Part shown: in pieces, positions 10,284 to 64,000 of the stretch
How the letters are laid out: the number at the start of each line of letters is the position of its first letter
Numbering within the stretch: the first letter of the stretch is position 1
Assembly (NCBI GenBank): GCA_945786985.1
Contig: CALZGC010000160.1
Location: forward strand, 1,031 to 65,030
Reading direction: 5' to 3'
Source of the DNA: an uncultured Nitrospirota bacterium
GTDB lineage: Bacteria > CG2-30-53-67
DNA: 64,000 nt
Position numbers and translations under genes: made by a program
Notes under the pieces: model-generated
Seen by the model: only the letters and a program-made list of their open reading frames with translations
The model's database searches: none
What the model was told of the DNA's origin: nothing

Positions 10284-10328
10284 GATGGACTCCTTCTTCA
10301 TTTTCTCTCTGTTGGTGGGCCGAAGAAT

Positions 10329-10622: not shown

Positions 10623-10625
10623 GGC

Positions 10626-10823: not shown

Positions 10824-10867
10824 CCCATGCTCCTTTCAAAGACGAGAGACGGTCTGCCTCTGTACCA

Positions 10868-11467: not shown

Positions 11468-11499
11468 GATGGCCCGCCTCCCCGTTTCCCCTTGGCCAG

Positions 11500-11596
11500 C
11501 CCGAATATTGCACGAGTCAATCTATTACGAGGCCGCATGGGGCGCCTCTCGGGCTTCCGGGGCCTCTCATGACGACCACGCGTGCAATATGCGGGC
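11500..11596 (+). mobile_element. MITE-like element, copy B (short, about 97 bp; two termini only)
   Basis: CCCGAATATTGCACGAGTCAATCTATTACGAGGCC ... GGCCTCTCATGACGACCACGCGTGCAATATGCGGGC; fills the spacer between the BON-domain gene and mobA. Confidence 0.8.
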
Positions 11597-11952: not shown

Positions 11953-12129
11953 TGTCCCGTCTCCTTTCTCCAAAATCCACGCCAGTCCTGCCATCCTTTC
12001 GCTGAACATACATATCAATTCCGCCCTTTATTGTCAATGGGATATTCGCCGTTTCCTTGACACCCGTGGACCGCTCTGCTATTCTGTGCTGGCTTCATGC
12101 TGTCACCTTATGTCCCGGAGTTCACCTCA

Positions 12130-12597: not shown

Positions 12598-12603
12598 CTG
12601 CCC

Positions 12604-41852: not shown

Positions 41853-42038
41853 AGCTGCCTTTCAGGAAAAGGAGGCCGACAATTCGGCAAGATAGCCGCC
41901 CTGCGTTAAAAAGTCAAGATTCGCGACTGTCCGGGACGGGGCGCGGCGCTCGGCGTGCCTGATCCTTTTCCCTTGAGAAGCCCTGGTCGCTATGTTAGAT
42001 TTTCTCCGGATCGCCACGGCCGACAGGAGGAAAAGCTG

Positions 42039-43205
42039 TTGAAGATCGGATACTTGGACTGTTTTTCAGGTATCAGCGGAAACATGATGCTCGGGGCGTT
42101 GCTCGACGCCGGTCTGCCGGAAGTGCAGCTTGGCAGAGAACTGGGCAAACTCCCGCTCCCCGGTTACCGTCTGGAGGTGCAGAAGGCAAAGCGGGGGGGG
42201 CTCTCGGGAACCCTCGTCCATGTATCTGTGGCGCCGGGTCAGCCGATGCGAAATCTGAAGGACATCGTCGACATCATTGAGAGCAGCTCGCTGTCTGCCT
42301 CCATCCGGAAGAAAAGCAAGGCCATTTTTGAGAGCCTGGGGGAGGTCGAGGCGGCAATCCACGGAACCGATCTATCATCAGTACACTTCCACGAGGTCGG
42401 GGCGGTCGATTCGATCGTGGACATCGTGGGCGCTGTCATCGGGGTCGAACACCTTGGCATTGAGCGCATGAGCGCCTCACCGGTCAATCTGGGAAGCGGT
42501 TCCGTCAGCAGTGCGCACGGAACCCTGCCTGTTCCAGCACCCGCAACGGCGGCGCTGCTGAAAGGTCGGCCCGTCTACAGCGCCGGGGCGCCTCTGGAAC
42601 TCACCACGCCGACCGGCGCGGCCCTGCTGGTCGGCTTCGACTGTGACTTCGGGGTACTTCCCCCCATGCGTCTGGACCGGATCGGCTACGGCCTGGGCAG
42701 CCAGGATCCGTCCGGGTGGTCGAACGTGCTTCGCCTCTTCATTGGAGAGCAGGCCCCCGATCGTCGCGAAACCTGCTGGCTGATCGAAACCAATATCGAC
42801 GACATGAATCCCGAGTTCTACGGGCATCTGATGGAACGCCTTCTGGGCGAGGGCGCCCTGGATGTTTTCTTCACCCCCATCGTCATGAAAAAGGGCCGAC
42901 CCGGCACGCGGGTCGGGGTCCTTTCCCCCGAGGGCCGTGAGGAGGCCCTGAGCCGGGTTCTTTTTCTGGAGACCACGGCCATTGGGCTAAGACGCCACCG
43001 GGTGGAGCGGGACACGCTGGAGCGGAAGATCATCCAGGTTCAGACGCCCTATGGAGAAGTGCCCGTGAAACTCGGTCTTCTCGACGGGAAGGTGGTCAAC
43101 CATGCCCCCGAATATGAGGCGTGCCGCCGCCTGGCGGCTGAAAAGGGCGTGGCCCTCAAAACGGTATACATGGAGGCCCTCCGGGCTTCCGGGGGAGAGA
43201 GATGA
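42039..43205 (+). CDS. larC: nickel-pincer cofactor biosynthesis protein LarC (DUF111)
   Basis: MKIGYLDCFSGISGNMMLGALLDAG N-terminus; TTG start behind AGGAGG; ORF track start 41955. Confidence 0.75.
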   Translation: MKIGYLDCFSGISGNMMLGALLDAGLPEVQLGRELGKLPLPGYRLEVQKAKRGGLSGTLVHVSVAPGQPMRNLKDIVDIIESSSLSASIRKKSKAIFESLGEVEAAIHGTDLSSVHFHEVGAVDSIVDIVGAVIGVEHLGIERMSASPVNLGSGSVSSAHGTLPVPAPATAALLKGRPVYSAGAPLELTTPTGAALLVGFDCDFGVLPPMRLDRIGYGLGSQDPSGWSNVLRLFIGEQAPDRRETCWLIETNIDDMNPEFYGHLMERLLGEGALDVFFTPIVMKKGRPGTRVGVLSPEGREEALSRVLFLETTAIGLRRHRVERDTLERKIIQVQTPYGEVPVKLGLLDGKVVNHAPEYEACRRLAAEKGVALKTVYMEALRASGGER

Positions 43206-43734: not shown

Positions 43735-44844
43735 ATGAATGAACTTGAACAGCTTAAGAAAATCGTGCGGGACCAGACCCGGATGATCATTGAAAAGAAC
43801 CGCATGCTGGCTGAGATGGAGTACCGGCTGAAGAACTCCGTCATTACGGGAAGCCGCAGGGAGCAGCTCTCGCAAATGGAGTCCCGCTACGACAAAGACC
43901 TCATCGAGGAACAGGCGAGCATGCTGAAGAGCATCCTTGGATCGGTTCCCTGCGGTCTATTGCTGGTTAACGGACAGCGCAAGATCATATTGCATAACGA
44001 CGAGGCGCTTGAAATCATGGGACTCTCGGGCCAGGACGTACTCGGCAGGAGTTGTGAAGCCGTGATGGGAGAGACCTGCCGGGAGAGCTGTCTGCTGGAA
44101 AGTGCTGTGGAACTGGGCGAGGAGTTGTGCTGCCGTAAGATGGCCGCCCGTACCCGGGACGGCCGCGAATTGTCGCTTTCGCTGAAGGTGACGCCCATTC
44201 GCAACAGCCAAGGGCGCATCGTTGGCGGCGTTGAGGTCTTCTCCCGACGCACGGACTCGGTAGATCAGACGCAGGCCCTCCGGGAGCAGCAAGACGGAAT
44301 TTTTCGGGTCTTTTCACGTCTCATGGGGCAGAAGGACGGCTACCTGGTGGCCCACTCGCACCGGGTGAATGACATTGCCCTCCAGTTGGCGGACGCCCTG
44401 GGCATGGGGCACTCCAACGGTGAAAAAGACCTATCCCTGGCCTGCCTCGTTCACGATGTAGGTCTTCTGACGGTTCCCGGGGAGATTCTGAGTGCCAAGA
44501 GAACACGTCCGGCCCAAGAGCATGAAGCTATCCGATCTCACCCGGCCTCAGGGGAATGGATCCTTGACTCGCTCGAGGGGTTCGACCACATCAAGAAGAT
44601 CGTTCGTTCTCACCATGAGAGATTTGATGGTGGCGGCTATCCTGACGGACTCGTTGGAGAGGAGATCCCCAAGGAGTCCCGTATTCTCGCTCTGGCGGAG
44701 GCTTACGACGCTATGTGCCATGATGCCGCCGCCCCGAAGCGCTCCCCAGAGGAGATCATCCGGGAAATTCAGGAAAACAGCGGTACTCAGTTCGATCCTG
44801 AGATGGTAAGTGTTTTTCTGAAACAGGTGGTTTCGAAGCGATGA
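43735..44844 (+). CDS. PAS-sensor HD-GYP phosphodiesterase
   Basis: PAS-like region (LLLVNGQRKIILHNDEALEIMG), HD motif plus HHERFDGGGYP. Confidence 0.75.
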   Translation: MNELEQLKKIVRDQTRMIIEKNRMLAEMEYRLKNSVITGSRREQLSQMESRYDKDLIEEQASMLKSILGSVPCGLLLVNGQRKIILHNDEALEIMGLSGQDVLGRSCEAVMGETCRESCLLESAVELGEELCCRKMAARTRDGRELSLSLKVTPIRNSQGRIVGGVEVFSRRTDSVDQTQALREQQDGIFRVFSRLMGQKDGYLVAHSHRVNDIALQLADALGMGHSNGEKDLSLACLVHDVGLLTVPGEILSAKRTRPAQEHEAIRSHPASGEWILDSLEGFDHIKKIVRSHHERFDGGGYPDGLVGEEIPKESRILALAEAYDAMCHDAAAPKRSPEEIIREIQENSGTQFDPEMVSVFLKQVVSKR

Positions 44845-50978: not shown

Positions 50979-51044
50979 GTCTATTCAGCGCAGGATCCGT
51001 GCGCTCACTGCATGACGATTCCCCCAAGGTAATGCGCTTTAGCT

Positions 51045-51204
51045 CGGACATTGCATAAGTGTTCGTCGTGAGAGGCCCCCAGAGGTCCCAGAGATCCTGG
51101 AAGCGTCACAGGCAAGGCGCAGAAGATTTTCTGGCTGAAGACATATTGCAATATTTCGAAGTCAGAAAATTTTCTGTAACGCCAAATGTGGCAGGCTATA
51201 CGGC
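51045..51204 (-). mobile_element. MITE-like element, copy F (inverted; degenerate or truncated termini)
   Basis: internal module GCGCAGAAGATTTTCTGGCTGAAGACATATTG...GTGGCAGGCTATACGGCC shared with copies A and C; abuts the fmdB stop codon. Confidence 0.7.
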
Positions 51205-51702
51205 CTAGAGCTCGTAGAGCGTATCGTCCACCGTAGGAGGCAGAAACCGCTTGCGCAGACCCGCGACCCCGCCGGAGGACTTGGCGGCAAAAGGATCTTC
51301 CGTTTCGAGGATATCCCCCATCTCCTGATCGATCTGCTCCGGGTCCTCTCCCGATTCCATGCGCCGGATGGCCTCTTCCATGCCCGAACCGAGCTGCAGT
51401 CCCGTGGCATCAAAGAGCCGCCGCATTAACCGGGCGGCCTGACGGGGGTCTTCCTCGTTCATTCCCTCTGCTTCCCGGGCCAGAACCTGCATGGCCTGCT
51501 CCAGTTTGGCTTCGTCCATGTCGGGCATGGCGTCGTCGTCCCCCTCCTTGCGCCCTTTGGAGATTGCAAAGAGCGATACTTCACGTTCCAGCTCGGCCCG
51601 GCCGCACTGGGGGCAGTTGGGTCGGCGCTTGGTGTTGACGGATCTGGACAGAAAGTTGAAGATCCTGTGACAGTCGCTGCAGTAGAATTCGTAGATCGGC
51701 AA
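51205..51702 (-). CDS. FmdB-family zinc-ribbon protein
   Basis: PIYEFYCSDCH...CPQCG; TTG start behind GGAGGTGA. Confidence 0.6.
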   Translation of the reverse strand: MPIYEFYCSDCHRIFNFLSRSVNTKRRPNCPQCGRAELEREVSLFAISKGRKEGDDDAMPDMDEAKLEQAMQVLAREAEGMNEEDPRQAARLMRRLFDATGLQLGSGMEEAIRRMESGEDPEQIDQEMGDILETEDPFAAKSSGGVAGLRKRFLPPTVDDTLYEL

Positions 51703-52146
51703 GGGCTCACCTCCGGATGTAGGGAAAACGGGATCACCAAGGGAAAAATAGCACAAAGCGCCTTCGCCATCAAAGAAAAATGACCTGTTTCCGGCAAATC
51801 CTGAACCCTTGCGGTCCTGCGTGCCCGCTGCCCCAAGCCATAACGGATCGTGCGCGCTCAGCCTCTGCGGGTCTGTTGGCGTCTCTGCAATACCGCACCA
51901 CAGCCAGCTTAAGATCGATTTTCTTCCTCTAACCTTGGCTTCACTCTCGGACGCTTTGACGAAGCTTCTATTCTCATGGTTTTACGACACGAACCCCCTT
52001 TGCTACCTACCCCTTTTCTATGATATACAGAAGTGTCTAGATTCCGGGTACCCCATTTTTCTTTGTCGGCTTTTGCACGTGTCGGTCATCCCGCAGTTCA
52101 GGACGAACAATGAACCGGATTCGTGCACCTCAGGAAGAGGTGACCA

Positions 52147-54627
52147 TTGGCCCTCGCGCTTCAACGACCGCTGTTCGAGGACGAAAGCAGCGGCATACTG
52201 GATCGGGGTCAGATCCGAGCCATCCTTGGGTATATCAGAAACCGGATGATTCCGGTCCGCGTCTCGGTCAGTCAGGACCCTCGCCTCTATCATGGGTACG
52301 TGGGAAGCTTCCGTCGACGTGCGGGCGAAATCAATCTGCGCGTCGCACCGGGGGAGGGCAACAACCTGGCGCCTTCCGTGCGTCCCGGCGCGCACATCAC
52401 CGTGTCCTTTGTCTGCAAAGACCGGGCCTTCTTCCTTGACACCGGGATCTCAAGCATATTCGAATCCGACGTGCGGATATGGTTTCCCGACGCGCTCTCT
52501 TTTTACCCATCCCGGGCTGCCCATCGGATGACATACCCGTTTTCCGTACCGATGACCGTGGAGTTTGTCGACCCCCGGACGCAGAAAGGGTGGCGGGTCC
52601 ATGAACTCGAAGACCTCAGCTACCATGGCCTGAGCTTCCGCTGTGAGGCCGTTGAGCCGGCCTTGGTCCCGGGGATTTGGATTCCCCGTCTGAACCTGTA
52701 CAATTTTGAGCGGCGCTGTTACGGGACACCGGCGAAAGTACGGCATGTCAGAGAGTGTTGGGATTCGGCCGGACGATGCTTTCACCGCGTCGGTGTCCTC
52801 CTTTCTCCTTCCAATAGAATGGAGGCCCGCCAATCAGCCGCTCGGGTCGCCATGGGAACCGGCCGGGACGAGCTGAATCACCCGCCGGCCATTCAAAGCC
52901 TGCTGAATCAGTGGATGCACGAGAACATACCCGTCGAATTCAACGATCGGGTAAAGAGACATAGCCCGGTCCGGGTGCTTCCGAGTAAGCCCTTTGTCGA
53001 CGAAGGGGCTCTGGTGTTTCGCCTCGTGCCCCAGCGTTTGAAGGCCTTCCCCTTTCGGGTTGGGGAGGAGATCCAAGGAGAGTGTGTTTATCACGACACC
53101 CTCTTCCGATTCGCGACGATTCTGGGTTACAGCGGCGGTGGACGCATGCGGGTCGGGATGCCGGTCCGTATCACCCGACTGCGCAGAAGGCGCTCGCAGC
53201 GGTGTTCGTCCGTTGGCCCCTGGCGTATACGCATTGTCTTCAAAAACCCAATTTCCAACAACGTCATTTCCAAGCCAATTTCCGATCTCTCCGAGGATGG
53301 CTTTTCGATGGCCCTCGATTACAAACGGGCCATGCTCTTTCCCGGCATGACCATTGAGGGGACGCAGCTCGATCTTCCCGACGGCCGGCACAGCGTGCCG
53401 GCACTGCGGGTGCTCTACGCCAAAACGCTTCCGTCCGCACGCGGCCGTCCGCGTTGTCGCGTCGGGTTTGCGTGGAAGCACCTGTCCGGAGAGACCCGCC
53501 GGGGCATCGGCGACGTTTTGCGGAAGGTTCGGCATCCGGGGCTCTTCCGGCCGGATTCCGCCAGGGTCGGTGAAATCTGGGATCTCTATGACCGGGCGGG
53601 ATTCCTCTATCCGGCAAAGAAAGCAGCCATTTCAAAGATGCAAAAGGAAATCGATGACACCTGGGAGAAACTCTACGCCCCGGAGACCCCCTTCTTCCGG
53701 AACCTCACCTTTACCGTGGACGGGGAGATCGTCGGGTCGGGGGCCATCCTTCAGGTCTATGACAGTACCTGGCTGCTGCAGCATCTCTCCGCCCTGCCAT
53801 ATCATCCGGCCACGGTCAGCAAGGAGATCAACCTGGGGCTGGTGGAAGAGCTGATGCGCGACAGAAACATCTGGTATATCAAGACCTATTTCCGGCCGAA
53901 CAACCCTTGGCCCAACAAGACATTTCGGGCCTTTGCGGAAAAACAACTCAAGCCGGGGGCCTACGATCTGACGCGGTATCACTTTTTTGAGAAAGACCCG
54001 TTGCCCCTGCCTGTCACCGGCCGGCTGCCCGCCGGGGTCGCAGTGGGTGCCCTCAGGCGCGGCGACGGAGAAATGATACGGAATTATTTCGTCCGTGCCG
54101 GGAAGGTCTTCTTCGCTCGCTCCGAGTCGCTCCTCACGACGGAATGCAGTCTCCGAGAAACGTCGGAGCGCTATCGCAGACGGGGGCTACTCAGAGAGCG
54201 TCGAATCTTCGTGGCGAAAAAGGCCGGGGCCCTTCTGGCTTTCGTGCTGGCAGAAGATGCATCCTTCGGCTTGAATCTCTCCGGTCTTCTCAACACCTGT
54301 CGGCTCTATTTGCTCAGGCACGAACCGGCCGTCATGGCGGCTGTGCTTCCCCATCTTCTGAATAGGGTCCTTGCGTTTTACCGGTCCCGGGGATACGGGA
54401 AAATTCTGCTGGTCGCGTCCGACGAGGCCGGGGCCCCTTTGGGTGAGCTAGGTTTTGAGGCCATGCGGGACTACTACTGCCTCACCTTTCACCGGGAATC
54501 GCTGCTGGAGTACCTGCATTTCATTCACGACAAGTACGCCAGGCTCGAGCGCAGAATGCGAAAAGAGGGCCCGGGCTCGCAAGAACGGAAAGGTCCAGAC
54601 AATCGAAATAACGAGATGGTGCCATGA
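52147..54627 (+). CDS. large multidomain protein: about three PilZ-like (c-di-GMP-binding) repeats followed by a roughly 350-aa GNAT/FemAB-like C-terminal region of unknown function
   Basis: repeated R-x-x-R ... D-L-S-x-x-G-(L/F)-S motifs (ELEDLSYHGLSF, ISDLSEDGFSM); C-terminal RSRGYGKIL GNAT-like motif; TTG start behind AGGAAGAGG. Confidence 0.4.
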   Translation: MALALQRPLFEDESSGILDRGQIRAILGYIRNRMIPVRVSVSQDPRLYHGYVGSFRRRAGEINLRVAPGEGNNLAPSVRPGAHITVSFVCKDRAFFLDTGISSIFESDVRIWFPDALSFYPSRAAHRMTYPFSVPMTVEFVDPRTQKGWRVHELEDLSYHGLSFRCEAVEPALVPGIWIPRLNLYNFERRCYGTPAKVRHVRECWDSAGRCFHRVGVLLSPSNRMEARQSAARVAMGTGRDELNHPPAIQSLLNQWMHENIPVEFNDRVKRHSPVRVLPSKPFVDEGALVFRLVPQRLKAFPFRVGEEIQGECVYHDTLFRFATILGYSGGGRMRVGMPVRITRLRRRRSQRCSSVGPWRIRIVFKNPISNNVISKPISDLSEDGFSMALDYKRAMLFPGMTIEGTQLDLPDGRHSVPALRVLYAKTLPSARGRPRCRVGFAWKHLSGETRRGIGDVLRKVRHPGLFRPDSARVGEIWDLYDRAGFLYPAKKAAISKMQKEIDDTWEKLYAPETPFFRNLTFTVDGEIVGSGAILQVYDSTWLLQHLSALPYHPATVSKEINLGLVEELMRDRNIWYIKTYFRPNNPWPNKTFRAFAEKQLKPGAYDLTRYHFFEKDPLPLPVTGRLPAGVAVGALRRGDGEMIRNYFVRAGKVFFARSESLLTTECSLRETSERYRRRGLLRERRIFVAKKAGALLAFVLAEDASFGLNLSGLLNTCRLYLLRHEPAVMAAVLPHLLNRVLAFYRSRGYGKILLVASDEAGAPLGELGFEAMRDYYCLTFHRESLLEYLHFIHDKYARLERRMRKEGPGSQERKGPDNRNNEMVP

Positions 54628-56141
54628 AGATACTGCTGATCAAACCGCCGCTGAACAAGACCTCCATCATTGGGGACTCGCTCATCGAACCGCTGGAGTT
54701 GGAAATCCTGGCCGCCACCGTGTCGCAGTATCCCTGCAGGATTCTGGACATGCGGATCGATGCCGATCTGAAGAGCACGCTCGAGGAGTTTCTTCCCGAC
54801 CTGGTCGGCATCACGGCCTACACCACCGAGGTGCCGATGGTGCGCGGTCTTATCCGTCGTGTGAAGGTGCTGGCGCCGTCGGCTTTCGTAGTGGTCGGTG
54901 GATGCCACGCGTCGGTTGTGCCCCGAGATTTCTTTGCCACCGGCGTGGACGCCGTGGCCGTGGGTAACGGCGAGGCCCTCTTCCCGGGTCTGGTCAACGC
55001 GATCGCCCGGCGCGGGGATCTCTCCCAGGTGTCTGGGCTTTGGCACCGCTCGAAGGACCGATACGCGTACACGGGCGATCCGCCGTTCCTGAAAGACCTC
55101 AATACGCTGCCGCCGCCGGCCCGCTGGCTGACGCAGTCCTACCGGCACCGGTATTTCTTTGGGCGTAACCGCCCGGCCGCCGCCATCATGACGTCCCGGG
55201 GGTGTCCCTTCCGGTGCAGTTTCTGTTCCATCTGGAAGATGATGAACGGGAAATACTTGGTCCGAAACGCCGAGAAAGTGGTGGAGGAGCTGTCTGACAT
55301 CCAAGAACGGCACGTCTTCATTGCCGACGACAACACCCTCTCTCACGCCCGCCATGCCGGGGGTCTGGCTGCTGCCATTGGGCGGGCCGGTCTTCGCAAG
55401 TGCTATAAAATGTACGGACGGGCGGATGCCATTGTCTCCCGACCGGATATCGTTGAGCAGTGGCGTTCGGTCGGTCTTCAGACCGTCATCATGGGGCTCG
55501 AGTCGTTTCAGGACCGGAGACTCACCCAATTCAACAAGGGCAGCACGGTCGATCTTCAGAACCGTGCCATCGAAATCCTGAAGGCCAACGGTATCCGGGT
55601 GCGGGCCTATTTTATCGTCGATCCCGATTTCACGCGGGGCGACTTCCGGGCGCTGCTGGACTACGTCGAGCGGGAAGAAATCACGGAACCGATGTTTTCG
55701 ATTCTGACGCCCCTGCCAGGTACCGACTTGTTTGAGCAATCGCGAGAGCGGCTCCTGCTGGACCGCCATGAACTGTTCGACCTGGTGCACGCCGTGCTGC
55801 CGACACGACTCCCGCGCCGGGAGTTTTACGCGGAGTTCAGCAAGCTTTACCGAAAGAGCTACCCCCTGAAGAAGATCCTCGGGGTCAATGGGGCCCCGCT
55901 GCGGGCCGGGCGCCTCGTAGGCGGCGGACTGGCCTATCTCAAGATGCGGGCCATCACCCGGAGGATGGAACACGCCTATCGCATTGAGGAGAAGATCCAT
56001 GCCGAGACTCGTACTGATCAACCCGGTATCCAACACGAAGCGGGGCATCCAGCGGCGAAAAATCACGCGCTTCCCGCCCCTGGGGCTGGCGTCTCTCGCC
56101 GCCATGACTCCGCCGAACTGGACGGTGACCCTGGTGGATGA
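54624..56141 (+). CDS. B12-binding (class B) radical SAM protein 1
   Basis: N-terminal cobalamin-binding Rossmann-like domain (MKILLIKPP...); radical SAM CPFRCSFC; 4-nt overlap with the upstream gene. Confidence 0.75.
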   Translation: MKILLIKPPLNKTSIIGDSLIEPLELEILAATVSQYPCRILDMRIDADLKSTLEEFLPDLVGITAYTTEVPMVRGLIRRVKVLAPSAFVVVGGCHASVVPRDFFATGVDAVAVGNGEALFPGLVNAIARRGDLSQVSGLWHRSKDRYAYTGDPPFLKDLNTLPPPARWLTQSYRHRYFFGRNRPAAAIMTSRGCPFRCSFCSIWKMMNGKYLVRNAEKVVEELSDIQERHVFIADDNTLSHARHAGGLAAAIGRAGLRKCYKMYGRADAIVSRPDIVEQWRSVGLQTVIMGLESFQDRRLTQFNKGSTVDLQNRAIEILKANGIRVRAYFIVDPDFTRGDFRALLDYVEREEITEPMFSILTPLPGTDLFEQSRERLLLDRHELFDLVHAVLPTRLPRREFYAEFSKLYRKSYPLKKILGVNGAPLRAGRLVGGGLAYLKMRAITRRMEHAYRIEEKIHAETRTDQPGIQHEAGHPAAKNHALPAPGAGVSRRHDSAELDGDPGG

Positions 56142-57444
56142 GAACATCGCCCCGGCCGTTCTGCCCGAGGCCGATCTGGTGGGGATTACCTCCTTTACCT
56201 CCACCATCAACCGGGCGTATGAACTCGCGAGCGCCTATCGAGACAGGGAGGTTCCGGTGGTGATGGGCGGCATTCATCCCACCATGGTCCCTGAAGAGGC
56301 CCGGCAGTTCGCGGACAGCGTCGTCCGGGGCGAGGCGGAGGCTCTCTGGCCTCAGGTGCTGCAGGATGCCGAACGCGGTTGTTTGAAGCCGATCTACGAG
56401 GGTCGTCCGGAGCGACTGTGCGACCTGCCCCATCCTCGGCGGGACCTTTTCGACCCCGGCTATGCCTGGGGCACCTTGCAGACGTCTCGCGGCTGCCCCA
56501 TGGACTGTCATTTCTGCTCCGTGACGGCCTTCAATGGGCGCCGATTCCGGCAGCGGCCCGTCGCAGACGTGCTCGATGAACTCGCGACCATCCCGCAGCA
56601 GAATATCTTCTTTGTGGACGACAACCTGCTGGGTTACGGCCGGCAGGCCGAGGCGCGGGCCATCGAGCTCTTTCGGGGGATGGTCGAGCGGGGGCTTCGC
56701 AAACGGTTCGCCTGCCAGACATCGCTCAATTTTGCCGACAACCCGCAGGTGCTCGAATGGGCGCAAAAAGCCGGTTGTAAAATGGTTTTTGTTGGACTAG
56801 AATCCGTTTCAGAGGGCTCTTTGGAGTCTATGGGGAAATCCTACAACCTGAAGAAAGGGACCGACCAGTATGCCGCATGCATCCGCCGCTGCCATGCACA
56901 CGGAATCGGCGTCATCGGGGCGCTCATCTTCGGCAGCGACGAGGACGATCCCGGGATCTTCAAGAGGACCCTCCGTTTTATTCGGACGTCCGGACTGGAC
57001 GTGATTCAGATCACCTTCGCCACCCCGCTGCCGGGGACCCGCTTTTTTGAGCGGCTACAGCGGGAAGGGAGGCTGACCCACACCGACTTTCCGGAAGATT
57101 GGAAGGCCTACAGCTTTTCCCGGATTCTCTTTCGGACCCGGGGAGTGTCGGTGGAGGATCTCTACCGCGGGATGGTGTATGTGAAGGACCACCTTTACAC
57201 TCCCATTCCCTTTGTCCGGCGGGCGCTTCGAACCCTACTGGAGACCCGAGACCTGGCCACCGCGGCGATGGCCTACAAACTGAACAAAGGGTATCGTAGA
57301 GGCTACCGTGAAACGACCTACTTCCAACCGTACTCCTCCATGCACCGCAAAGCTTCCGTCAGACAGCCCGCCCAGTCCCTCCAGCGTTGCGCCGCACCCG
57401 AGGGCGCCCAAGGCAGCCCGGGCGAGTGCGCCGTTGACGATTGA
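55999..57444 (+). CDS. B12-binding (class B) radical SAM protein 2 (DUF4070-like C-terminus)
   Basis: MPRLVLINPV...PPLGLASLAA B12-domain N-terminus; CPMDCHFC; start behind GAGGAG; overlaps the gene 1 ORF by 143 nt. Confidence 0.75.
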   Translation: MPRLVLINPVSNTKRGIQRRKITRFPPLGLASLAAMTPPNWTVTLVDENIAPAVLPEADLVGITSFTSTINRAYELASAYRDREVPVVMGGIHPTMVPEEARQFADSVVRGEAEALWPQVLQDAERGCLKPIYEGRPERLCDLPHPRRDLFDPGYAWGTLQTSRGCPMDCHFCSVTAFNGRRFRQRPVADVLDELATIPQQNIFFVDDNLLGYGRQAEARAIELFRGMVERGLRKRFACQTSLNFADNPQVLEWAQKAGCKMVFVGLESVSEGSLESMGKSYNLKKGTDQYAACIRRCHAHGIGVIGALIFGSDEDDPGIFKRTLRFIRTSGLDVIQITFATPLPGTRFFERLQREGRLTHTDFPEDWKAYSFSRILFRTRGVSVEDLYRGMVYVKDHLYTPIPFVRRALRTLLETRDLATAAMAYKLNKGYRRGYRETTYFQPYSSMHRKASVRQPAQSLQRCAAPEGAQGSPGECAVDD

Positions 57445-59689
57445 TCCATCCAAGATCAGGAATGAAGTCAACTGCCGCGCTTTCAACAATATTCTGATCT
57501 ACCTCGAGGAGAACTTCGGTGAGGAGGGGCTTCGGGAGTTGATTGGGAAGACCGGTATGACCGTCGCCTATCTGCGGGATCAGAACAACTGGGTCTCCTG
57601 GTCCTTCTACTGCGACCTGCTCGAGGAGCTGGTGACCTGGACGGGCGACCCCGGCGCCCCGTTCAAGGCCGGGACCTATTCGGGCCACAAACGGGCGTGG
57701 GGCTATCTCCACTACGTCTTCTATGCCTTCGGCAACGTGGGGCGGGTTCTGAAGAAAGCCTCCGAGATCGTTCCCCATTTCAACCGGGGGGCTGAGTGGA
57801 CCCTGCTCGATCTTCAGAAGAACCGGGCGACCATTCGGATCCGGATGAAGGAGGGCTATCCCGCCCGACGGGTCTGCTGCGAAAGCCGGATGGGGCAGGC
57901 CGTCGGTATCCCCAAGGCTTTCGGGATGCCTCCGGGCCGTGCGCGGGAGACCCAGTGCCAGGCCCGGGGGGGCGACGCCTGTGTCATGGAGGTTGCGTGG
58001 CTGAACCGCCCGCAGAAACTCTATGGCATCGCCGGGGCTCTTCTGGGGGCGCTGGCCGGCATGCTCTTTCACGTTGTGACCCCGGATCACCCGTGGAACG
58101 TCTTTGCCGCCGGACTCATCGCAGTGACGGGCTACCTGGCCGGGCGGCATCTCGATTACCGGCGGAGCGAAGCCGGCAATGCCCAGATCAACGCGGAGCA
58201 GACGGCGGCCTTGGAGGAGTCGGTCAAAATCATCGAGAACAAGTACGATGAGCTGAAGCGGGCCAACGATGGGCTCTTTGCTCTCCAAGAGATCAGCCGG
58301 GCCATTACCTCCACCCTGCAGCTTGATGAGGTTCTGCAGAAAGTACTGCAGATGGCCGTAGAACGCCTTAGTTTCGATCGGGCCGTGGTCATGCTCGTCG
58401 ACGAGAAGGAGGGCGTGCTTCGGGAGGGGCGCATCTACGGGGATGAGGCCCTCGTAGACTATGTCCGGAAGCTTCAGATCTGCATCAGCCCCCGATCACC
58501 GGTCGCTGAGGCAGTGCTTTACCGAAAGCGGGGCCAGATTGTCACGCAGGAATACATCGCCTCCGACAGCGCGACGCCTCTGGAAAAGCAGATTTTCCGG
58601 ATCACCCAGACGCCGGAGTATGTGGTCGCGCCGCTCGTAAGCCGGGACCGGCTTCTCGGAATCCTGGCGGCAGACCGCGCGCGCTCAGGCCTCCCAATTA
58701 AAGAGCAGGACAGGGATCTGATGGTCAGTCTGGCAAATCAGGTGGCCGTGGCCATTGAGAATGCCCGCTCTTTTCTGACCATAGAGGATCTCAACCTCAA
58801 CCTGGAAAGGAAAATCACGGAGCGGACCCGGGCCCTCGAGACCTCCCTGTTGGAGCTTACGGAGGCGCAGGAGCAGCTGATCCATACCGAGAAGATGTCG
58901 TCCCTGGGGCTCCTCATGTCCGGGCTCGCGCACGAAATCAACAATCCCATCAATTTCGCCCACAACGGTCTTCAGGCGATGCACCAAACACTCCGCAGGA
59001 TTCAAGACCTCTCCCGAAGCACCGTCAAACTATCCGACGGGGAAACCCGGGACCGGGCGGGAAAAGGGGAGCTTGAGGAGGCGCTCAGCGATTCGGAGCG
59101 CATCATGGAAATCATACAGACCGGGCTGAACCGCACGCGCGATCTTGTGGCGAGCCTCAAACACTTCTCCCGCCGCGAGGGGCGGGATCGAGAATACTTT
59201 ACCCTGGAGTCGTCTCTGCAGTCGGCCCTCACCATCCTGAGCCATCAAATGGCCGATCGCATTGCCGTGCAGATGGTTATCGGCGTTTCCGCAACGATCC
59301 TCGGCCATCCGGATCAGCTCAGCCAGGCCTTCCTCAACCTGATCCACAATGCCATCCAGGCGATCCCGGAGAAGGGCCATATCCGGATCATGGTGGATCC
59401 GACCGATTCGGGCCGCGTTCGGGTACTTATCCGAGACAATGGCCGGGGGATCGCGCCGGCCGATCTGCCCCGGATCTTCGAGCCCTTTTTCACCACCAAG
59501 AAATCAGGTGAGGGCACCGGTTTGGGAATGAGCATCTGCCGCCGGATCATAGAAAACCACGGGGGAACCATCCAGGTGTCGAGCCGGCCCGGACAAGGGA
59601 CGGATGTCACCGTCCAGCTTCCGGTGTGCCGGGAGCGGCAGGCGCGAGGCGAGGGCGTGCAGCGGGAGAAGTCGATTGGAGCCGATTGA
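57308..59689 (+). CDS. sensor histidine kinase: V4R-like / Cys-containing N-terminal sensor, TM segment, GAF, HisKA, HATPase_c
   Basis: CCESRMGQAVG...ETQCQARGGDACVMEV (V4R-like), GAF region, H-box LAHEINNPINF, N/G-box NAIQA...GTGLGMSICRRI; true start uncertain (low-complexity N-terminal 50 aa overlaps the upstream gene). Confidence 0.7.
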   Translation: MKRPTSNRTPPCTAKLPSDSPPSPSSVAPHPRAPKAARASAPLTIDPSKIRNEVNCRAFNNILIYLEENFGEEGLRELIGKTGMTVAYLRDQNNWVSWSFYCDLLEELVTWTGDPGAPFKAGTYSGHKRAWGYLHYVFYAFGNVGRVLKKASEIVPHFNRGAEWTLLDLQKNRATIRIRMKEGYPARRVCCESRMGQAVGIPKAFGMPPGRARETQCQARGGDACVMEVAWLNRPQKLYGIAGALLGALAGMLFHVVTPDHPWNVFAAGLIAVTGYLAGRHLDYRRSEAGNAQINAEQTAALEESVKIIENKYDELKRANDGLFALQEISRAITSTLQLDEVLQKVLQMAVERLSFDRAVVMLVDEKEGVLREGRIYGDEALVDYVRKLQICISPRSPVAEAVLYRKRGQIVTQEYIASDSATPLEKQIFRITQTPEYVVAPLVSRDRLLGILAADRARSGLPIKEQDRDLMVSLANQVAVAIENARSFLTIEDLNLNLERKITERTRALETSLLELTEAQEQLIHTEKMSSLGLLMSGLAHEINNPINFAHNGLQAMHQTLRRIQDLSRSTVKLSDGETRDRAGKGELEEALSDSERIMEIIQTGLNRTRDLVASLKHFSRREGRDREYFTLESSLQSALTILSHQMADRIAVQMVIGVSATILGHPDQLSQAFLNLIHNAIQAIPEKGHIRIMVDPTDSGRVRVLIRDNGRGIAPADLPRIFEPFFTTKKSGEGTGLGMSICRRIIENHGGTIQVSSRPGQGTDVTVQLPVCRERQARGEGVQREKSIGAD

Positions 59690-60410
59690 TTACAAGGCGT
59701 ATCCCATTCTCTTTGTCGATGACGAGTCGGAGAATCTGGACATCTTCTCGATTAACTTCCGGGATACCTTCACCATCCGTACGGCGCTGAGCGGTCCCGA
59801 AGGCCTGACCCTGCTGGCCCGCGAGCCGGTGGCGCTCGTTCTCTCGGACCAGCGGATGCCCGAAATGTCCGGCATCGAATTCCTCCGGGAGGTTCACCGG
59901 CGCTATCCGGATATTGTCCGGGTCCTCGTGACGGCCTACTCCGATCTGGATTTCGCCTCCGAGGAGACCGCCGGTTCCTTGCTCTACTCCTACGTTCTCA
60001 AACCCTGGGAGGGGAAGCTGCTGCGGATGCTCCTGATGCGGGGGGTCGAACAATTCCATCTCGTGTCGGCGCTCAAGCGGCTGGAGGCCGCACCGGCCAC
60101 ACAACGCATACCTTCTGCAAGAGGGTCCGAGATTGTTCGGGAGATTGATGCGTCCCTGGCATCCCTCCGGACCTATCTGGAGAGGATCCCGAAAAAGATC
60201 GCGGCCCTTCCTCTCTCCGATCCGGGCCGCCTGGACCGCGAATTCTGGGCAGAGTCCGAGACCCTGAGCCGGGACGAACTGACCCGGATCCGATCCCTCA
60301 TCGCCGAGTTGTCCGAAACGGGGGATGTCCGCAGTGGTGATCGAAGAGGTCACCATTCCCGCGGACAAGCCCCGGGGGAGGACCACGGAAACAAGAAGGG
60401 CAGCCGATGA
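59676..60410 (+). CDS. response regulator (receiver domain plus an uncharacterised roughly 120-aa C-terminal domain)
   Basis: ILFVDDE, LVLSDQRMPEMSG, LVTAYSD receiver motifs; TTG start overlaps the kinase stop by 14 nt. Confidence 0.7.
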   Translation: MEPIDYKAYPILFVDDESENLDIFSINFRDTFTIRTALSGPEGLTLLAREPVALVLSDQRMPEMSGIEFLREVHRRYPDIVRVLVTAYSDLDFASEETAGSLLYSYVLKPWEGKLLRMLLMRGVEQFHLVSALKRLEAAPATQRIPSARGSEIVREIDASLASLRTYLERIPKKIAALPLSDPGRLDREFWAESETLSRDELTRIRSLIAELSETGDVRSGDRRGHHSRGQAPGEDHGNKKGSR

Positions 60411-60501
60411 GGTCTGCGGGGCGGCCCGCGAGGGCCGCTCTTTGAATGAATTTTCGGGTGATCACGGCGTCCAAAGTGTCAGAAGTAACGCCCGAAAGAA
60501 C

Positions 60502-60530
60502 TTGACGCCCATGGGGGCGAGCGGTATACT
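60502..60530 (+). promoter_or_regulatory. sigma-70 promoter (TTGACG-17-TATACT) for the OmpA-family gene
   Basis: sequence match, about 40 nt before the RBS AAGGGAGG. Confidence 0.5.
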
Positions 60531-60569
60531 TCGATTTATTTTCAAATGGACCCCAAAGGGAGGATAAAC

Positions 60570-61274
60570 ATGAAGAGAAACAGACAGTTAGTAATCTTGG
60601 CGATGGCTGTGGCTTTCGTCTTTTCGCTGACCGGGTGTGCCCAGTGGCAGCAATCATCGAAGACAACCAAGGGAGCCGTGACCGGCGCTGCGGTGGGGGC
60701 CGCCACGGGCTATCTGCTCAAGCAGGGTGATTCCTCCAAGCGGGCCAAAGCGACCGTCCTTGGGGCCGCGGTGGGCGCCACGGCGGGCGGCCTTGTCGGG
60801 CGCTACATGGAGAACCAGGCGCGGGAACTCCAGGCGATTCAGGATGCACAGGTCCGGCTTGAGCAGGACAAGGTTTTTCTCACCTTTGACAGTGGCATTC
60901 TCTTCGACGTCAACTCGACTTCCCTAAAGGCCGGCGCCATGCAGAATCTGAACAAGGTGGCCGATGTGATGACCCGCTATCCGGAGACGAATATACTCGT
61001 CGCGGGGCATACCGACAGCAGCGGAACGGATCAACACAACCAGGGGCTCTCTGAGGACCGGGCGCGCTCCGTGTCCAACTATCTGGGCTCCCACGGGGTC
61101 AGCTCCTACCGCATCAGCACGGTGGGTTACGGTGAGTCCATGCCGATCGCCAGCAACAACACAGCGGCGGGGCGACAGGCCAACCGCCGGGTGGAAATCG
61201 AGATCAAGGCGAACCAGGCCCTGTACGAGCAGCAACAGCAGCAGGCGCCCGCCGGAGGCTATCCGGGGCAGTAG
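60570..61274 (+). CDS. OmpA-family lipoprotein (glycine-zipper plus OmpA C-terminal peptidoglycan-binding domain)
   Basis: lipobox LTGC; Gly-zipper GAAVGAATG; OmpA_C motifs (GHTDSSG, NQGLSEDRA, NRRVEI). Confidence 0.85.
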   Translation: MKRNRQLVILAMAVAFVFSLTGCAQWQQSSKTTKGAVTGAAVGAATGYLLKQGDSSKRAKATVLGAAVGATAGGLVGRYMENQARELQAIQDAQVRLEQDKVFLTFDSGILFDVNSTSLKAGAMQNLNKVADVMTRYPETNILVAGHTDSSGTDQHNQGLSEDRARSVSNYLGSHGVSSYRISTVGYGESMPIASNNTAAGRQANRRVEIEIKANQALYEQQQQQAPAGGYPGQ

Positions 61275-61316
61275 AGGGCCGCAGTAGACCGCTTCAGAAA
61301 GAACCATGATTTGACA

Positions 61317-61351
61317 GGCGGCCCTGATGGTAAAGTCGGGGCCGCTTTTTT
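61317..61351 (+). terminator. rho-independent terminator after the OmpA-family gene
   Basis: GGCGGCCC-loop-GGGGCCGC followed by TTTTTT. Confidence 0.7.
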
Positions 61352-61463
61352 CACGCCATGGCTGTGAAATGGCATCTTTCCCCAGAGCGACGGGCAAACT
61401 CGAAAACCCGTTAAGAATTGAGCCTATATCCTTCTCCCGAATCTTGCCTGGGGCTCCGAAACG

Positions 61464-61500
61464 GTGGAAACGCTTTTCCTAAAAGTGGAAAAAGTTTTCA
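61464..61500 (+). promoter_or_regulatory. paired palindromic motifs (tGGAAAcgcTTTTCC / GTGGAAAAAGTTTTCAC), candidate enhancer (UAS) about 150 bp upstream of a sigma-54 promoter
   Basis: read directly; a related GTGGAAA...TTTTCAC pair is at 35371-35408 upstream of the other PEP-CTERM gene. Confidence 0.35.
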
Positions 61501-61642
61501 CATCTGCACGATACTTTGAAGCCGATTCGTGCACCACAGACAGCGCCCGTTCAATCTCTCCTTTTCCGGGACAAAGAAAAACCTCATAATCACAATGTGA
61601 TAGAAATCCGTTTCTCCATTTTTCGTAATTAGGGTCCTATTT

Positions 61643-61656
61643 GGCAGGTGATTTGC
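61643..61656 (+). promoter_or_regulatory. sigma-54-type promoter (TGGCAG-N5-TTGCG; GG-N10-GC) upstream of PEP-CTERM gene 2
   Basis: tTGGCAGgtgatTTGCGa. Confidence 0.5.
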
Positions 61657-61769
61657 GATGCCCTATGATCTAGCGAGGTATGACTTCGAAGCAGTGCTAC
61701 CCTGCCACGGAGTCAAATTTGGACTAAAGACGATCCTTGGGGGGATTTTTCGCACGGGGGATGATAGGA

Positions 61770-62477
61770 ATGCGAGTTTCACGGGGGAAGTATCTGTTCT
61801 TGCCTTTTCTGTTGTGTTTTTTACTTCTGTTACAGGTCACGCCTGCCTCTAGCTCACCCATCATATTCGGCGGACGGGAAACGTCTTCCAACCATGCCGA
61901 TATTGATCCACTGCTCGCCGATTTTGTGATCCCCTTGGACGTGACCAACGACGACGCGGCTTATGGCGGCAAAGATGTGCTCCGTGTAACACTTGAGAAC
62001 AACAGTGCGGCGGAAAATCCCGGTTTCGACGGATACGAGATATCGTCCTTCACCTTCAACACCAGAGCCGGCATAGCATTTGAAAAAAAGGATGACGACA
62101 AGAACGGACTGCCCGACGGGCTGCTCTTCACAAGCATTTCGGGATTTGACACCCTCGATTCCGATTCCAATGTAAACGGTTTCGGGAGGTTCTCTTTGAG
62201 AATAAAGGACGGAGGCAACGTGACGATCGATCCGGGTGATACGGGGGAGTGGCACCTCTCAATTCAAGGAGGGCAAGAGCCTTACACATGGGAAATTTTT
62301 TGTCTTGTCAATAGTGACGGCTATCTAACCGGTGCCCACGTAAAACGCGTCGACGGGATAGGACAAACTGGTTTCGTCGGCGTTATGCCGACCGTGATCC
62401 CCGAACCCACGTCTCTCCTGCTGCTCGGGACCGGCGTCGTGGGACTCATCGGTCTTCGCCGGAAAGTGAAGAAATAA
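61770..62477 (+). CDS. PEP-CTERM sorting-domain protein
   Basis: signal peptide; C-terminus VIPEPTSLLLLGTGVVGLIGLRRKVKK*; alternative starts at 61737 (TTG) or 61761. Confidence 0.8.
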   Translation: MRVSRGKYLFLPFLLCFLLLLQVTPASSSPIIFGGRETSSNHADIDPLLADFVIPLDVTNDDAAYGGKDVLRVTLENNSAAENPGFDGYEISSFTFNTRAGIAFEKKDDDKNGLPDGLLFTSISGFDTLDSDSNVNGFGRFSLRIKDGGNVTIDPGDTGEWHLSIQGGQEPYTWEIFCLVNSDGYLTGAHVKRVDGIGQTGFVGVMPTVIPEPTSLLLLGTGVVGLIGLRRKVKK

Positions 62478-62526
62478 CAACGACGTTGCAATCGAAAAAT
62501 CTCCATCCCACAAGTGGGGATCATCC

Positions 62527-62560
62527 AGGCGGCATCTTGAATAAGATGCCGCCTTTTTTG
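62527..62560 (+). terminator. rho-independent terminator after PEP-CTERM gene 2
   Basis: AGGCGGCATCTT-GAAT-AAGATGCCGCC followed by TTTTTT. Confidence 0.75.
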
Positions 62561-62645
62561 TATCTCTTCAGATACGATAATCGGTTGACAAGGCCTCACG
62601 AATCATCATAAGATCAGCCTCGATCTCGCCCACCGGTGCCCGGAA

Positions 62646-64000
62646 TGATGAAACTGACCCTGACCAGAAAGGTGTTCCTCGGCTACTTCCTGATGATTTG
62701 TCTGGTGGTGGTGGAGGGGGCCTATGCCATCTTTGAGCTCAACCGGCTGAACCAGCTCTCCCGCTCATTGGTGCAAGGCGAGGTGGCGTCTCTTGATCTG
62801 GAGAAGAAGCTCATCGATCTCTTTCTCTCCGAGGTCAGCCACGAGAAGAAATATCTGGTTGTGCAGGACCCCGATTTCCTGGAGCTGGCTATTGCGAAGA
62901 GCGGGGAATTCGAGGAGACGCTCCTGCGGTTGACGGCGGGTGCGGCGGGCGGCGCAGCAATGTCCGAACTGGAGGCCGTCCGGGATCTTCACGACCGTCA
63001 CGTTCAGAGTTTCTACGCCGCTCTGGAAGAGGCAAAGAGCGCCTCCGGGGAAAAATTCGAGGACTCTTCCGGCTGGACAGAGACCAGTGAGTCGGGGGTC
63101 CGGGGGGTGACCCGCAAGATCGAGGCACTGATCCGGACGGAAGAGATGGAGATGGCCCGCAAGATGGGGCAGGCCCAGCTCATCAGCTGGCGGGCCTACA
63201 AGATCACCATCGGGATCCTGATCTCCATGGGGGCCTTCGGCCTGATCACGGCCTGGCTGCTCACCCGCAGCATCCGGGTGCCGATCCAGAAGCTCACCCG
63301 CGGCACGCGGGACATTGCGCAGGGGGTTTTTGAGAACCGCATCGAGGTGGCGTCGCGAGACGAATTCGCTGATCTCGCCGGTGCGTTCAATACGATGACG
63401 GGGAAGCTGGCGGAACTCGAAAAGGTAAAACGGGAGATCATCTCCAACATCTCCCACGAGCTGCGCACCCCCCTGACCTCCATGAAGGAGGCCACCGAAC
63501 TTCTCTACGACCAAGTGCCCGGGCCCGTGAACAACACCCAGAAGCGGCTTCTTGGGATCGTTCAGGAAGGGATCGGCAAGCTGGTGCGGATGATCAATAA
63601 TTTACTCGATCTGTCCAAGATAAGGGCGGGGATGATGCAGTATCATTTTGAAAAGGGCGAGATATCCCATGTGATCTCGCTTGCCAAAGCGAACGTTCGC
63701 TTTCTGGCGGAGCTGCGGTGGTTGGTCCTGGACGTCGATATCGAACCGGGGCTGCCCCCCCTGTTCATCGATTCGGACAAAATTGAACAGGTGCTGAACA
63801 ACCTCCTCAGCAACGCAATCAAATTCACCCCCGAGGGAGGCCGCATCCGGATTCGGGCGTCTCGCGCTGAGGCCGCCTCCGGGAAGGGGGCCCCGCCCGA
63901 CGAGGTGGTGCGGGTCTGCGTGGAGGACAACGGCACGGGGATTGATTCCGAGCAGCTCGCGGGGATCTTCGACCGCTACCAGCAGGCCGATCCGGCCCTC
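62646..64000 (+). CDS. HAMP-domain sensor histidine kinase, 3' partial (runs off the window)
   Basis: two TM segments flanking a sensor region, HAMP (RDEFADLAGAFNTM), H-box ISHELRTPLT, N-box NLLSNAIKFT, DNGTGI. Confidence 0.8.

Follow-up and report, generated by a model that had tools for sequence, protein, structure and literature searches.

We analysed a 64,000-nucleotide stretch of DNA, hereafter the window, from an uncultured Nitrospirota bacterium (GenBank assembly GCA_945786985.1, contig CALZGC010000160.1, positions 1,031 to 65,030 of the forward strand), in which five co-directional open reading frames (ORFs) on the plus strand fill positions 52147-60410. The genes, termed A to E, encode a PilZ protein with a tandem-GNAT fold (A), two cobalamin (B12)-binding radical S-adenosylmethionine (SAM) enzymes (B and C), a membrane-anchored histidine kinase (D) and a receiver protein (E). 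Profile searches, structure prediction and comparison of related loci enabled us to delineate a recurrent cassette around protein A and to propose a putative model in which the cassette responds to cyclic diguanylate (c-di-GMP).

Organization of the cassette

The five genes are tightly packed (Table 1). Overlaps of 4, 143 and 14 nucleotides (nt) listed in an initial annotation of the same DNA were borne out, and an 11-nt overlap between C and D has to be added to them. Genes A and B share the ATGA at 54624-54627; D starts at TTG 57434, a position also used in relatives, and E at TTG 59676 behind an GGGAGAAG Shine-Dalgarno sequence. The start codon of gene A is TTG or GTG among relatives. With C starting at ATG 55999, it overlaps B by 143 nt; this start is preceded 7 nt upstream by a GAGGAG Shine-Dalgarno sequence and gives an N-terminus that is kept in relatives. 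In the overlap C reads in a different frame from B, and the overlapped part of B is its non-conserved tail. B and C of related loci overlap by 8, 17, 41 or 62 nt according to their own gene calls. This variable length points to a variable B tail without recoding or a conserved frameshift site; given also the strong Shine-Dalgarno sequence of C, a programmed frameshift joining B and C was rejected.

Upstream of gene A lies a divergent intergenic region of 390 nt with a promoter-like block, which is near-invariant (one substitution) across the window and its two closest relatives (loci L001 and L002), whereas the surrounding intergenic DNA diverges. A scan for consensus sigma-70 promoters found none upstream of A and did not call this block. 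No riboswitch or other RNA family was found in an Rfam scan of 51000-62800, so the conserved leader carries no c-di-GMP riboswitch.

Table 1. Coordinates of the cassette, its domains and the flanking features in the window (aa, amino acids)
Feature	Position	Strand	Description
Gene A	52147-54627	+	826 aa; TTG start, AGGAAGAGG Shine-Dalgarno sequence
A, aa 20-112	52204-52482	+	First YcgR-N (PilZN)-like helix and beta-barrel; low model confidence
A, aa 123-235	52513-52851	+	PilZ domain 1: R123xxxR127, D156-L-S158-Y-H-G161; pLDDT >90
A, aa 246-337	52882-53157	+	Second PilZN-like helix and barrel
A, aa 342-462	53170-53532	+	PilZ domain 2: R348xxxR352, D380-L-S382-E-D-G385
A, aa 471-806	53557-54564	+	Tandem-GNAT fold, two GNAT-like halves
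Gene B	54624-56141	+	505 aa; B12-binding radical SAM enzyme, CPFRCSFC; distantly HpnR/BchE-like
Gene C	55999-57444	+	481 aa; B12-binding radical SAM enzyme, CPMDCHFC, DUF4070 tail (Pfam)
Gene D	57434-59689	+	751 aa; membrane-anchored histidine kinase; TTG start
D, sensor, DmpR/V4R-like	aa 1-195; 57434-58018	+	V4R below threshold; Cys/Glu/Cys/Cys set
D, hydrophobic hairpin	aa ~197-237	+	Hydropathy: one strongly and one moderately hydrophobic segment
D, coiled coil	after hairpin	+	
D, GAF	58322-58762	+	Pfam
D, DHp/HATPase	58904-59626	+	Pfam HATPase_c
Gene E	59676-60410	+	244 aa; receiver domain and vestigial DHp helix pair; TTG start
Promoter-like block CTACCCCTTTTCTATGATATACA	52006-52029	+	Within the 390-nt intergenic stretch between A and the divergent gene
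Sigma-70-like site	60502-60530		Upstream of the OmpA-family lipoprotein gene
Gly-zipper/OmpA-family lipoprotein gene	60546-61274	+	Pfam; directly 3' within the Nitrospirota-like clade
PEP-CTERM sorting-signal protein gene	61737-62477	+	After the OmpA-like gene
Intrinsic terminator	62527-62554		12-bp stem and T-run
Zn_ribbon_8 (FmdB-type) protein gene	51205-51756	-	DUF1178-like tail; divergent from gene A
PAS-HD-GYP (HD_5) gene	43735-44844	+	~7.3 kb upstream of A
LarC-type nickel-insertion gene	41955-43205		Flanks the PAS-HD-GYP gene

Architecture of protein A

The Pfam PilZ model (PF07238) matched protein A with 25.3 bits over the whole protein against a cut-off of 22.5, a signal that comes from two segments of 18.4 and 15.9 bits; among 64 family members, 51 were matched (best E-value 8e-21). 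A full-length AlphaFold (AF2) model built on 121 homologues, with a predicted local distance difference test score (pLDDT) of 87 and a predicted TM-score (pTM) of 0.80, revealed PilZ beta-barrels, each of them preceded by a YcgR-N-like barrel. Just two RxxxR...DxSxxG pairs occur in A, one in each PilZ domain of Table 1, so that motifs and model agree on two canonical PilZ domains instead of the roughly three repeats initially counted. Both motif sets are conserved across the 121 homologues; for the motifs of PilZ domain 1, the positions are retained in 84-107 and 79-93 members. We thus infer that protein A is a c-di-GMP receptor. Homologues from Thermodesulfobacteriota (~950 aa) carry a third, N-terminal and strongly scoring PilZ domain, which the window protein lacks. 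In one family member, P0134 (592 aa), a receiver domain stands in place of the N-terminal PilZN-PilZ unit.

The C-terminal domain of A, modelled alone with a pLDDT of 94.2 and a pTM of 0.91, adopts a tandem-GNAT fold, and Foldseek retrieved ORF14, VipF and MAB_4324, all of them tandem GNATs, at an E-value of 1e-12. As judged from the model, which displays the GNAT alpha/beta fold, this domain belongs to the GNAT superfamily at the fold level. The GNAT-like C-terminus claimed by the initial annotation is upheld in this sense; the RSRGYGKIL stretch it had pointed to is not the coenzyme A (CoA) loop. This unconserved stretch sits at, or just past, the end of helix alpha3 in the second half. The loop that usually binds the CoA pyrophosphate reads R-H-E-P in the second half (aa 724-727); among family members it varies and is frequently deleted. 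Family-wide invariance is seen for H546, R683, R685, G708 and N710, together with an E-x-S-S-x-G-L-N-L-S motif, which lies in the beta3-beta4 loop of the second GNAT half.

A word-indexed homology search with A returned three near-identical proteins only; an exhaustive profile search uncovered a family of 1094 representative clusters at 50% identity (E ≤1e-3), with 92 of them at E ≤1e-30. The conserved region of this family comprises the second PilZ domain and the tandem GNAT, the latter being an output domain without Pfam or NCBIfam coverage. The closest genome is an uncultured Nitrospirae metagenome-assembled genome (MAG), the protein A of which is 77% identical. A PDB sequence search with protein A gave noise only, and a tblastn search of 72,556 plasmids with the second PilZ domain and GNAT region gave no match.

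Conservation of the cassette

The order A-B-C-D-E is kept in four loci (L001, L002, L004 and L006), in which A is 42-77% identical to the window protein. The closest relatives share the flanking genes too, and their synteny therefore proves little. The next clade (clade 1) consists of L004, from Hainich groundwater, and L006, with identities of 42-44% for A, 61-63% for B, 70-73% for C and about 60% for D. Its upstream genes are unrelated to those of the window, and its E is a full receiver-histidine kinase (REC-HK) protein. Downstream of the L004 cassette lie an OmpA gene and, 3' of it, a gene for a PEP-CTERM protein, as in the window.

Clade 2 comprises five Thermodesulfobacteriota MAG contigs (L009-L013), with A about 28% identical. 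In all five, a class-I SAM methyltransferase of 265 aa is encoded along with a hybrid kinase (~1010 aa), which bears the same N-terminal sensor as D at 28-31% identity. A B12-binding radical SAM enzyme is found in four of the five; L010 has two, and in L009 the gene lies on the opposite strand. These enzymes are closest to PhpK P-methyltransferases (235-260 bits). A REC-HK protein is encoded in four loci, the L009 contig ending just after its kinase, and two loci carry a short-chain dehydrogenase/reductase (SDR). In three of the five, the gene directly 5' of A encodes a protein of about 520 aa (522 aa) without a Pfam or NCBIfam match (L012 7521-9089, L009 7552-9120, L010 7551-9023); weaker matches to it adjoin A in L018, L031 and L032, and it is absent from the window.

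Clade 3 stems mostly from soil metagenomes and has A about 25% identical. Four of its loci (L025, L027, L028 and L038) run sensor-HK, REC-HK, A, methyltransferase, and L036 shows the first three of these genes before its contig ends; L025/L026 and L027/L028 are near-duplicate contigs. L019 reads A, methyltransferase, sensor-HK and is cut by its contig end, as are the partial cassettes of L029 and L039. Five further loci (L016, L037 and L041-L043) hold A and the methyltransferase. This class-I methyltransferase is UbiE/BioC/ArsM-like, with weak matches to cyclopropane-fatty-acid synthase. Furthermore, in P0137 (1048 aa) an A-type protein is fused to a class-I methyltransferase (residues 784-1046) that is 50% identical to the stand-alone enzyme. 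Finally, L018 places A between an FHA-GAF-HD-GYP protein (5531-7417, minus strand) and a convergent sensor-HK-REC-GGDEF protein (10316-13279, minus strand) with the same sensor domain as D.

Overlapping starts are common in compact GC-rich genomes, and one might regard the five genes as unrelated neighbours that merely run in the same direction, the more so as the closest relatives, with their shared flanks, offer little proof otherwise. However, in three clades that differ in gene order and have unrelated flanks, A is again accompanied by these partners, at 25-45% identity, and P0137 fuses A to its methyltransferase. A chance juxtaposition is thus effectively refuted by the distant synteny and the fusion. 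The recurrent core consists of protein A, a DmpR-like sensor kinase, a receiver(-kinase) protein and a methyltransferase. The B/C pair is lineage-specific; its place is taken elsewhere by a class-I SAM enzyme and/or a PhpK-like radical SAM enzyme. The module is conserved beyond close relatives, as the initial annotation had asked to be checked, and its description as a signal-linked modification module of conserved, uncharacterised genes is supported in part; the radical SAM pair, however, is not the conserved heart of it. Literature searches for PilZ proteins together with B12 radical SAM or GNAT proteins retrieved nothing that describes the cassette, and no curated family covers it.

Radical SAM enzymes B and C

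Both enzymes exceed the Pfam thresholds for the B12-binding domain (PF02310; B 59.7 and C 49.9 bits against 32.1) and for Radical_SAM (PF04055; B 56.5 and C 54.6 bits against 29.5) and possess the CxxxCxxC motif. B and C are thus assigned from their domains to the class-B, cobalamin-dependent radical SAM enzymes, in agreement with the earlier proposal. Cobalamin-dependent radical SAM enzymes are able to methylate unactivated carbon atoms, and B and C may likewise be methylases. A methylation theme is suggested by the clade 2 enzymes, for which PhpK is closest, and by B, which is closest to the C-methylase HpnR and aligns end to end with the HpnR model. Relatives in the PDB (CysS, TokK, OxsB) are remote.

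Among curated models, B and C match best to HpnR, HpnJ and the ladderane-lipid radical SAM enzyme, which would fit a tailoring of membrane lipids, with B and C methylating or cross-linking the chains as hopanoid, ether-lipid or ladderane enzymes do, A acylating the head group and the kinase monitoring the composition of the membrane. The membrane hairpin of D, the OmpA lipoprotein and PEP-CTERM protein downstream, and the distant loci with their weak cyclopropane-fatty-acid-synthase matches and a 3beta-hydroxysteroid dehydrogenase/fatty-acyl-reductase-like SDR are consistent with such a role. Yet neither enzyme reached a curated NCBIfam equivalog cut-off, and the misses were wide: B scored 256 bits on HpnR (TIGR04367; cut-off 650), 154 on BchE (481) and 87 on HpnJ (578); C attained at most 84 bits on any of these three models, its HpnR score; and the scores were 63-72 bits on the ladderane-lipid model (360) and 71 on PhpK (600). 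An identity of B or C as HpnR, BchE or the ladderane enzyme was thus rejected. No lipid gene was found among the scanned flanking genes, and none for hopanoid, bacteriochlorophyll or phosphonate metabolism among the scanned genes of the window and the related loci. In view of the wide misses, the set is no known hopanoid, BchE or ladderane operon, in line with the earlier failure to map it onto a characterised pathway. Moreover, A, B, C and E lack membrane segments by hydropathy, and the soil cassettes do without any radical SAM enzyme. We consider lipid tailoring improbable.

Class-B radical SAM C-methyltransferases are also common in clusters for ribosomally synthesized and post-translationally modified peptides (RiPPs), and weak matches to TIGR03975 and ApyD were obtained. 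B and C could then C-methylate a ribosomal peptide that A acylates. These family matches lie far below cut-off, however, and no conserved precursor-like small ORF was found; the sole long intergenic region contains the promoter-like block and the 5' leader, with no coding signal. Nor did the scanned genes of the window or the related loci include a recognition element, a protease or a transporter, which makes a RiPP-like maturation system highly improbable.

Orthologues of B at 61-64% identity keep the same neighbours. The wider B family (42-45% identity) extends to Methanoperedens, Elusimicrobia, Omnitrophota and others, where no cassette partner is found; in Methanoperedens, a phosphoenolpyruvate (PEP)-utilising enzyme resembling rifampicin phosphotransferase lies between a TetR gene and the B homologue. 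An attempt to deduce the substrate from these neighbours was dropped, the TetR regulator and the PEP-utilising enzyme being the only ones and uninformative.

Sensor kinase D and receiver protein E

Kinase D combines an N-terminal sensor, a membrane hairpin, a coiled coil, a GAF domain and a transmitter with its dimerization and histidine phosphotransfer (DHp) and ATPase parts. Its GAF and HATPase_c domains exceed their thresholds, and the N-terminal domain resembles V4R/DmpR sensors; as to the V4R/GAF kinase first proposed, the reservation concerns V4R itself, which stays below its cut-off. The sub-threshold V4R match falls at the same place in eight of ten D orthologues, and an Arabinose_bd match is seen in five of the ten (best E-value 7e-6). 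E172 occurs in all of the 13 sensor sequences compared, which represent three clades, and C149, C175 and C183 are each present in 12. The structural zinc ligands of DmpR are C151, E172, C177 and C185, and its V4R-scaffold sensory domain encloses phenol (PMC7264223). The Cys-x22-Glu-x2-Cys-x7-Cys spacing of D is similar, not identical, to that of DmpR. Given the near-identical positions of these residues and the shared C-x7-C spacing, the best reading of the N-terminal domain of D is a putative DmpR/XylR-type sensor. PDB profile searches with the sensor alignments returned nothing relevant, and a word-indexed homology search with the sensor returned one near-identical protein only.

Protein E starts with a complete receiver domain (Response_reg, PF00072; 54.2 bits), as had been proposed. 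Its DDE, D82, T110 and K133 are invariant in the alignment with the orthologues, the acceptor D82 being numbered on a 268-aa ORF. This receiver is closest to those of HD-GYP-type regulators, with 115 bits to the NosR-family model. The C-terminal 100 residues, taken at first for an unrecognised output domain, align with the DHp domain of the REC-HisKA-HATPase orthologues (L004, L006 and L011-L013). Compared with them, E has a 10-aa deletion in the H-box, an Arg in place of the His and a truncation that leaves it without the HATPase domain. The tail is thus a decayed transmitter, i.e., a degenerate DHp domain.

Flanking genes

Directly 3' of the cassette lies the OmpA-family lipoprotein gene, which is found at the same position in L001 (88% identical) and L004 (69% identical) and is absent from the distant loci. 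A terminator scan found none between E and this gene. With a sigma-70-like site upstream, it is probably transcribed from a promoter of its own, and whether it should be counted as part of the module is doubtful. The PEP-CTERM gene behind it is followed by the only strong intrinsic terminator in the region. On the other side, the Zn_ribbon_8 gene adjoins A only in L001 and L002 and was not found in L004 and L006; it is probably not part of the cassette. Further upstream, a PAS-HD-GYP gene, likely encoding a c-di-GMP phosphodiesterase, is flanked by the LarC-type gene and a peptidase M23 gene. Besides the zinc-ribbon gene, those scanned in the flanks code for SecA, alanine dehydrogenase and a hydrolase of the nitrilase family. 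PADLOC matches were confined to weak, generic radical SAM ones, so the cassette is no known defence system.

A putative model of the cassette

The gene structure, the domain and fold assignments, the motif conservation, the cross-phylum synteny and the single A-methyltransferase fusion enable us to propose a putative model, to which we assign a probability of about 0.4. The cassette would be a c-di-GMP-gated module for acyl transfer and methylation on a small hydrophobic molecule, with a kinase that senses this molecule or its precursor. Initially, the two YcgR-like PilZN-PilZ units of A would bind c-di-GMP and gate the C-terminal tandem-GNAT domain. The most likely role of this domain would be the transfer, or at least the binding, of an acyl or aminoacyl group on a small substrate; acetyl-CoA may not be the donor. 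Methylation of the presumed shared substrate would be coupled to A, here through the two translationally coupled cobalamin radical SAM enzymes and elsewhere through a class-I SAM methyltransferase and/or PhpK-like radical SAM enzymes. In this way, c-di-GMP would turn on the making of an acylated and methylated small hydrophobic molecule. Afterwards, the cytoplasmic N-terminal sensor of the membrane-anchored D would read that molecule or its precursor as its putative ligand, and D would phosphorylate the adjacent receiver protein E, the own kinase half of which is lost in this lineage. The c-di-GMP context of the cassette is suggested by the PAS-HD-GYP gene about 7 kb upstream and by the GGDEF and HD-GYP neighbours in L018.

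Several observations weigh against this model. For protein A, no Pfam or NCBIfam GNAT model reaches its threshold (Acetyltransf_1 12.7 against 20.7 bits), and a weak GNAT match occurs in just 1 of 64 homologues. In neither GNAT half does the beta4-alpha3 loop, which is unconserved in both, show the Q/R-x-x-G-x-G/A pyrophosphate motif. As the canonical CoA-binding loop is absent, the domain could be a binding module or use another donor, and both acyl-CoA use and acyl transfer by A are putative. For B and C, methylation is the commonest precedent, but class-B enzymes of the BchE type are not methylases. Across the three clades, the radical SAM enzymes are non-orthologous: their identity is about 28% and confined to the core, with a partial exception in L009, the enzyme of which is 30% identical to C over its full length; none is found in any soil locus or in L013. 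Hence, B and C may represent an add-on that acts on a substrate of its own. Likewise, the wider B family sits directly behind a TetR regulator (L021 7396-9392; L023/L024 4676-9368). For D, the V4R model scores 17-19 bits on the N-terminal domain against a cut-off of 31. In addition, the window holds no evident gene for a substrate, a precursor or a transporter. Finally, the L018 arrangement suggests that the kinase may act upstream of c-di-GMP and not sense the product; an order from kinase to c-di-GMP to A would be equally compatible with this locus as the feedback role.

The latter order leads to an unlikely but serious alternative, in which the cassette is linear. A DmpR-like kinase would sense an environmental or metabolic hydrophobic cue and alter c-di-GMP levels via the receiver, c-di-GMP would activate A, A would acetylate or acylate proteins in the way proposed for PixB, and the methyltransferases or radical SAM enzymes would modify the same or other proteins, with no small-molecule product. 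In L018 the kinase is indeed fused to REC-GGDEF and lies beside A and an HD-GYP protein; the HD-GYP-regulator-like receiver of E and the PAS-HD-GYP gene in the window point the same way. PixB, which binds c-di-GMP, requires its acetyltransferase domain for the regulation of motility and development (PMC8316039); its described architecture is what likens it to A. Protein acyltransferases are among the top structural matches of A (VipF, Eis-like proteins, N-myristoyltransferase), but so are small-molecule enzymes (histidine and glucosamine N-acetyltransferases, clavulanate ORF14), and the CoA-binding loop of A is unconserved. Moreover, A is tightly coupled to, and in one protein fused with, a class-I methyltransferase of a small-molecule type, and two loci add an SDR; these features look more metabolic than regulatory.

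If the proposed c-di-GMP-gated acylation-methylation module is carried one step further, the cassette might form a self-contained signalling circuit that occurs in several phyla, running from c-di-GMP through a tandem-GNAT synthase and a methylated acyl product to a DmpR-type zinc/V4R sensor kinase. We regard this extended version as distinctly unlikely. If true, it would tie an intracellular second messenger to a signal that is autoinducer-like or carried in the membrane, in a manner similar to that of the Ralstonia phc system.

To our knowledge, most known PilZ effectors bind proteins, DNA or polysaccharide synthases, and enzymatic outputs of c-di-GMP are rare. The cassette is thus a concrete candidate for a new c-di-GMP output. 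Its reproducible partners and catalytic-looking conserved residues make the A family, with its roughly 1,100 clusters at 50% identity, testable, and B and C provide two orphan class-B radical SAM enzymes with a defined genetic context. A true DmpR-type ligand pocket in D would be an unusual pairing of this sensor with a histidine kinase rather than a sigma-54 activator.

Comparison with known systems

The nearest characterised architecture to protein A, compared by its description, is that of PixB (MXAN_2604) from Myxococcus xanthus, which has two PilZ domains and a GNAT acetyltransferase domain and binds c-di-GMP; its substrate is unknown (PMC8316039). Whereas the acetyltransferase of PixB is described as GNAT-family, A possesses a tandem GNAT of 340 aa without a Pfam or NCBIfam match or a conserved CoA loop. 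Moreover, A has a PilZN-like barrel before each PilZ domain, and no partner of the radical SAM, methyltransferase or sensor-kinase kind is reported for PixB. The stand-alone PilZN-PilZ adaptors YcgR, MotI, MrkH and PP4397 act via protein or DNA binding; A contains this unit twice, joined in one chain to an enzyme-like domain. The known tandem GNATs (NAT16, bacterial and fungal glucosamine N-acetyltransferases, clavulanate ORF14, MAB_4324, VipF and N-myristoyltransferase) share 10-17% identity with A at TM-scores of about 0.45-0.5. They are not PilZ-regulated, whereas the GNAT of A is fused to PilZ, and the conserved residues and beta3-beta4 loop motif of A differ from the classical GNAT motifs.

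Among the partners, B and C share the B12-binding and CxxxCxxC core with HpnR, BchE, HpnJ and PhpK but score below every equivalog cut-off. The sensory part of DmpR, XylR, MopR and PoxR (XylR_N and V4R) compares with the domain of D, which is about 195 aa long, shows sub-threshold V4R matches on its C-terminal part and is followed by a coiled-coil linker; the DmpR-type domain is borne by a sigma-54 AAA+ activator, whereas D carries its sensor on a membrane hairpin and a histidine kinase.

As a whole, the cassette is reminiscent of the Ralstonia phcBSRQ operon, which encodes the methyltransferase PhcB, the sensor kinase PhcS, the receiver-kinase PhcR and the receiver PhcQ, and in which the methyltransferase makes a hydrophobic methyl-ester signal (PMC8578825). 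It resembles the wider cassette in its SAM methyltransferase, sensor kinase and soluble receiver-kinase without a DNA-binding domain. The phc system differs in having no PilZ/GNAT protein or radical SAM enzyme, and the window version in having no class-I methyltransferase and a receiver without its kinase half. The likeness is thus an analogy in gene content, in which a methyltransferase, a sensor kinase and a receiver protein appear side by side in both systems.

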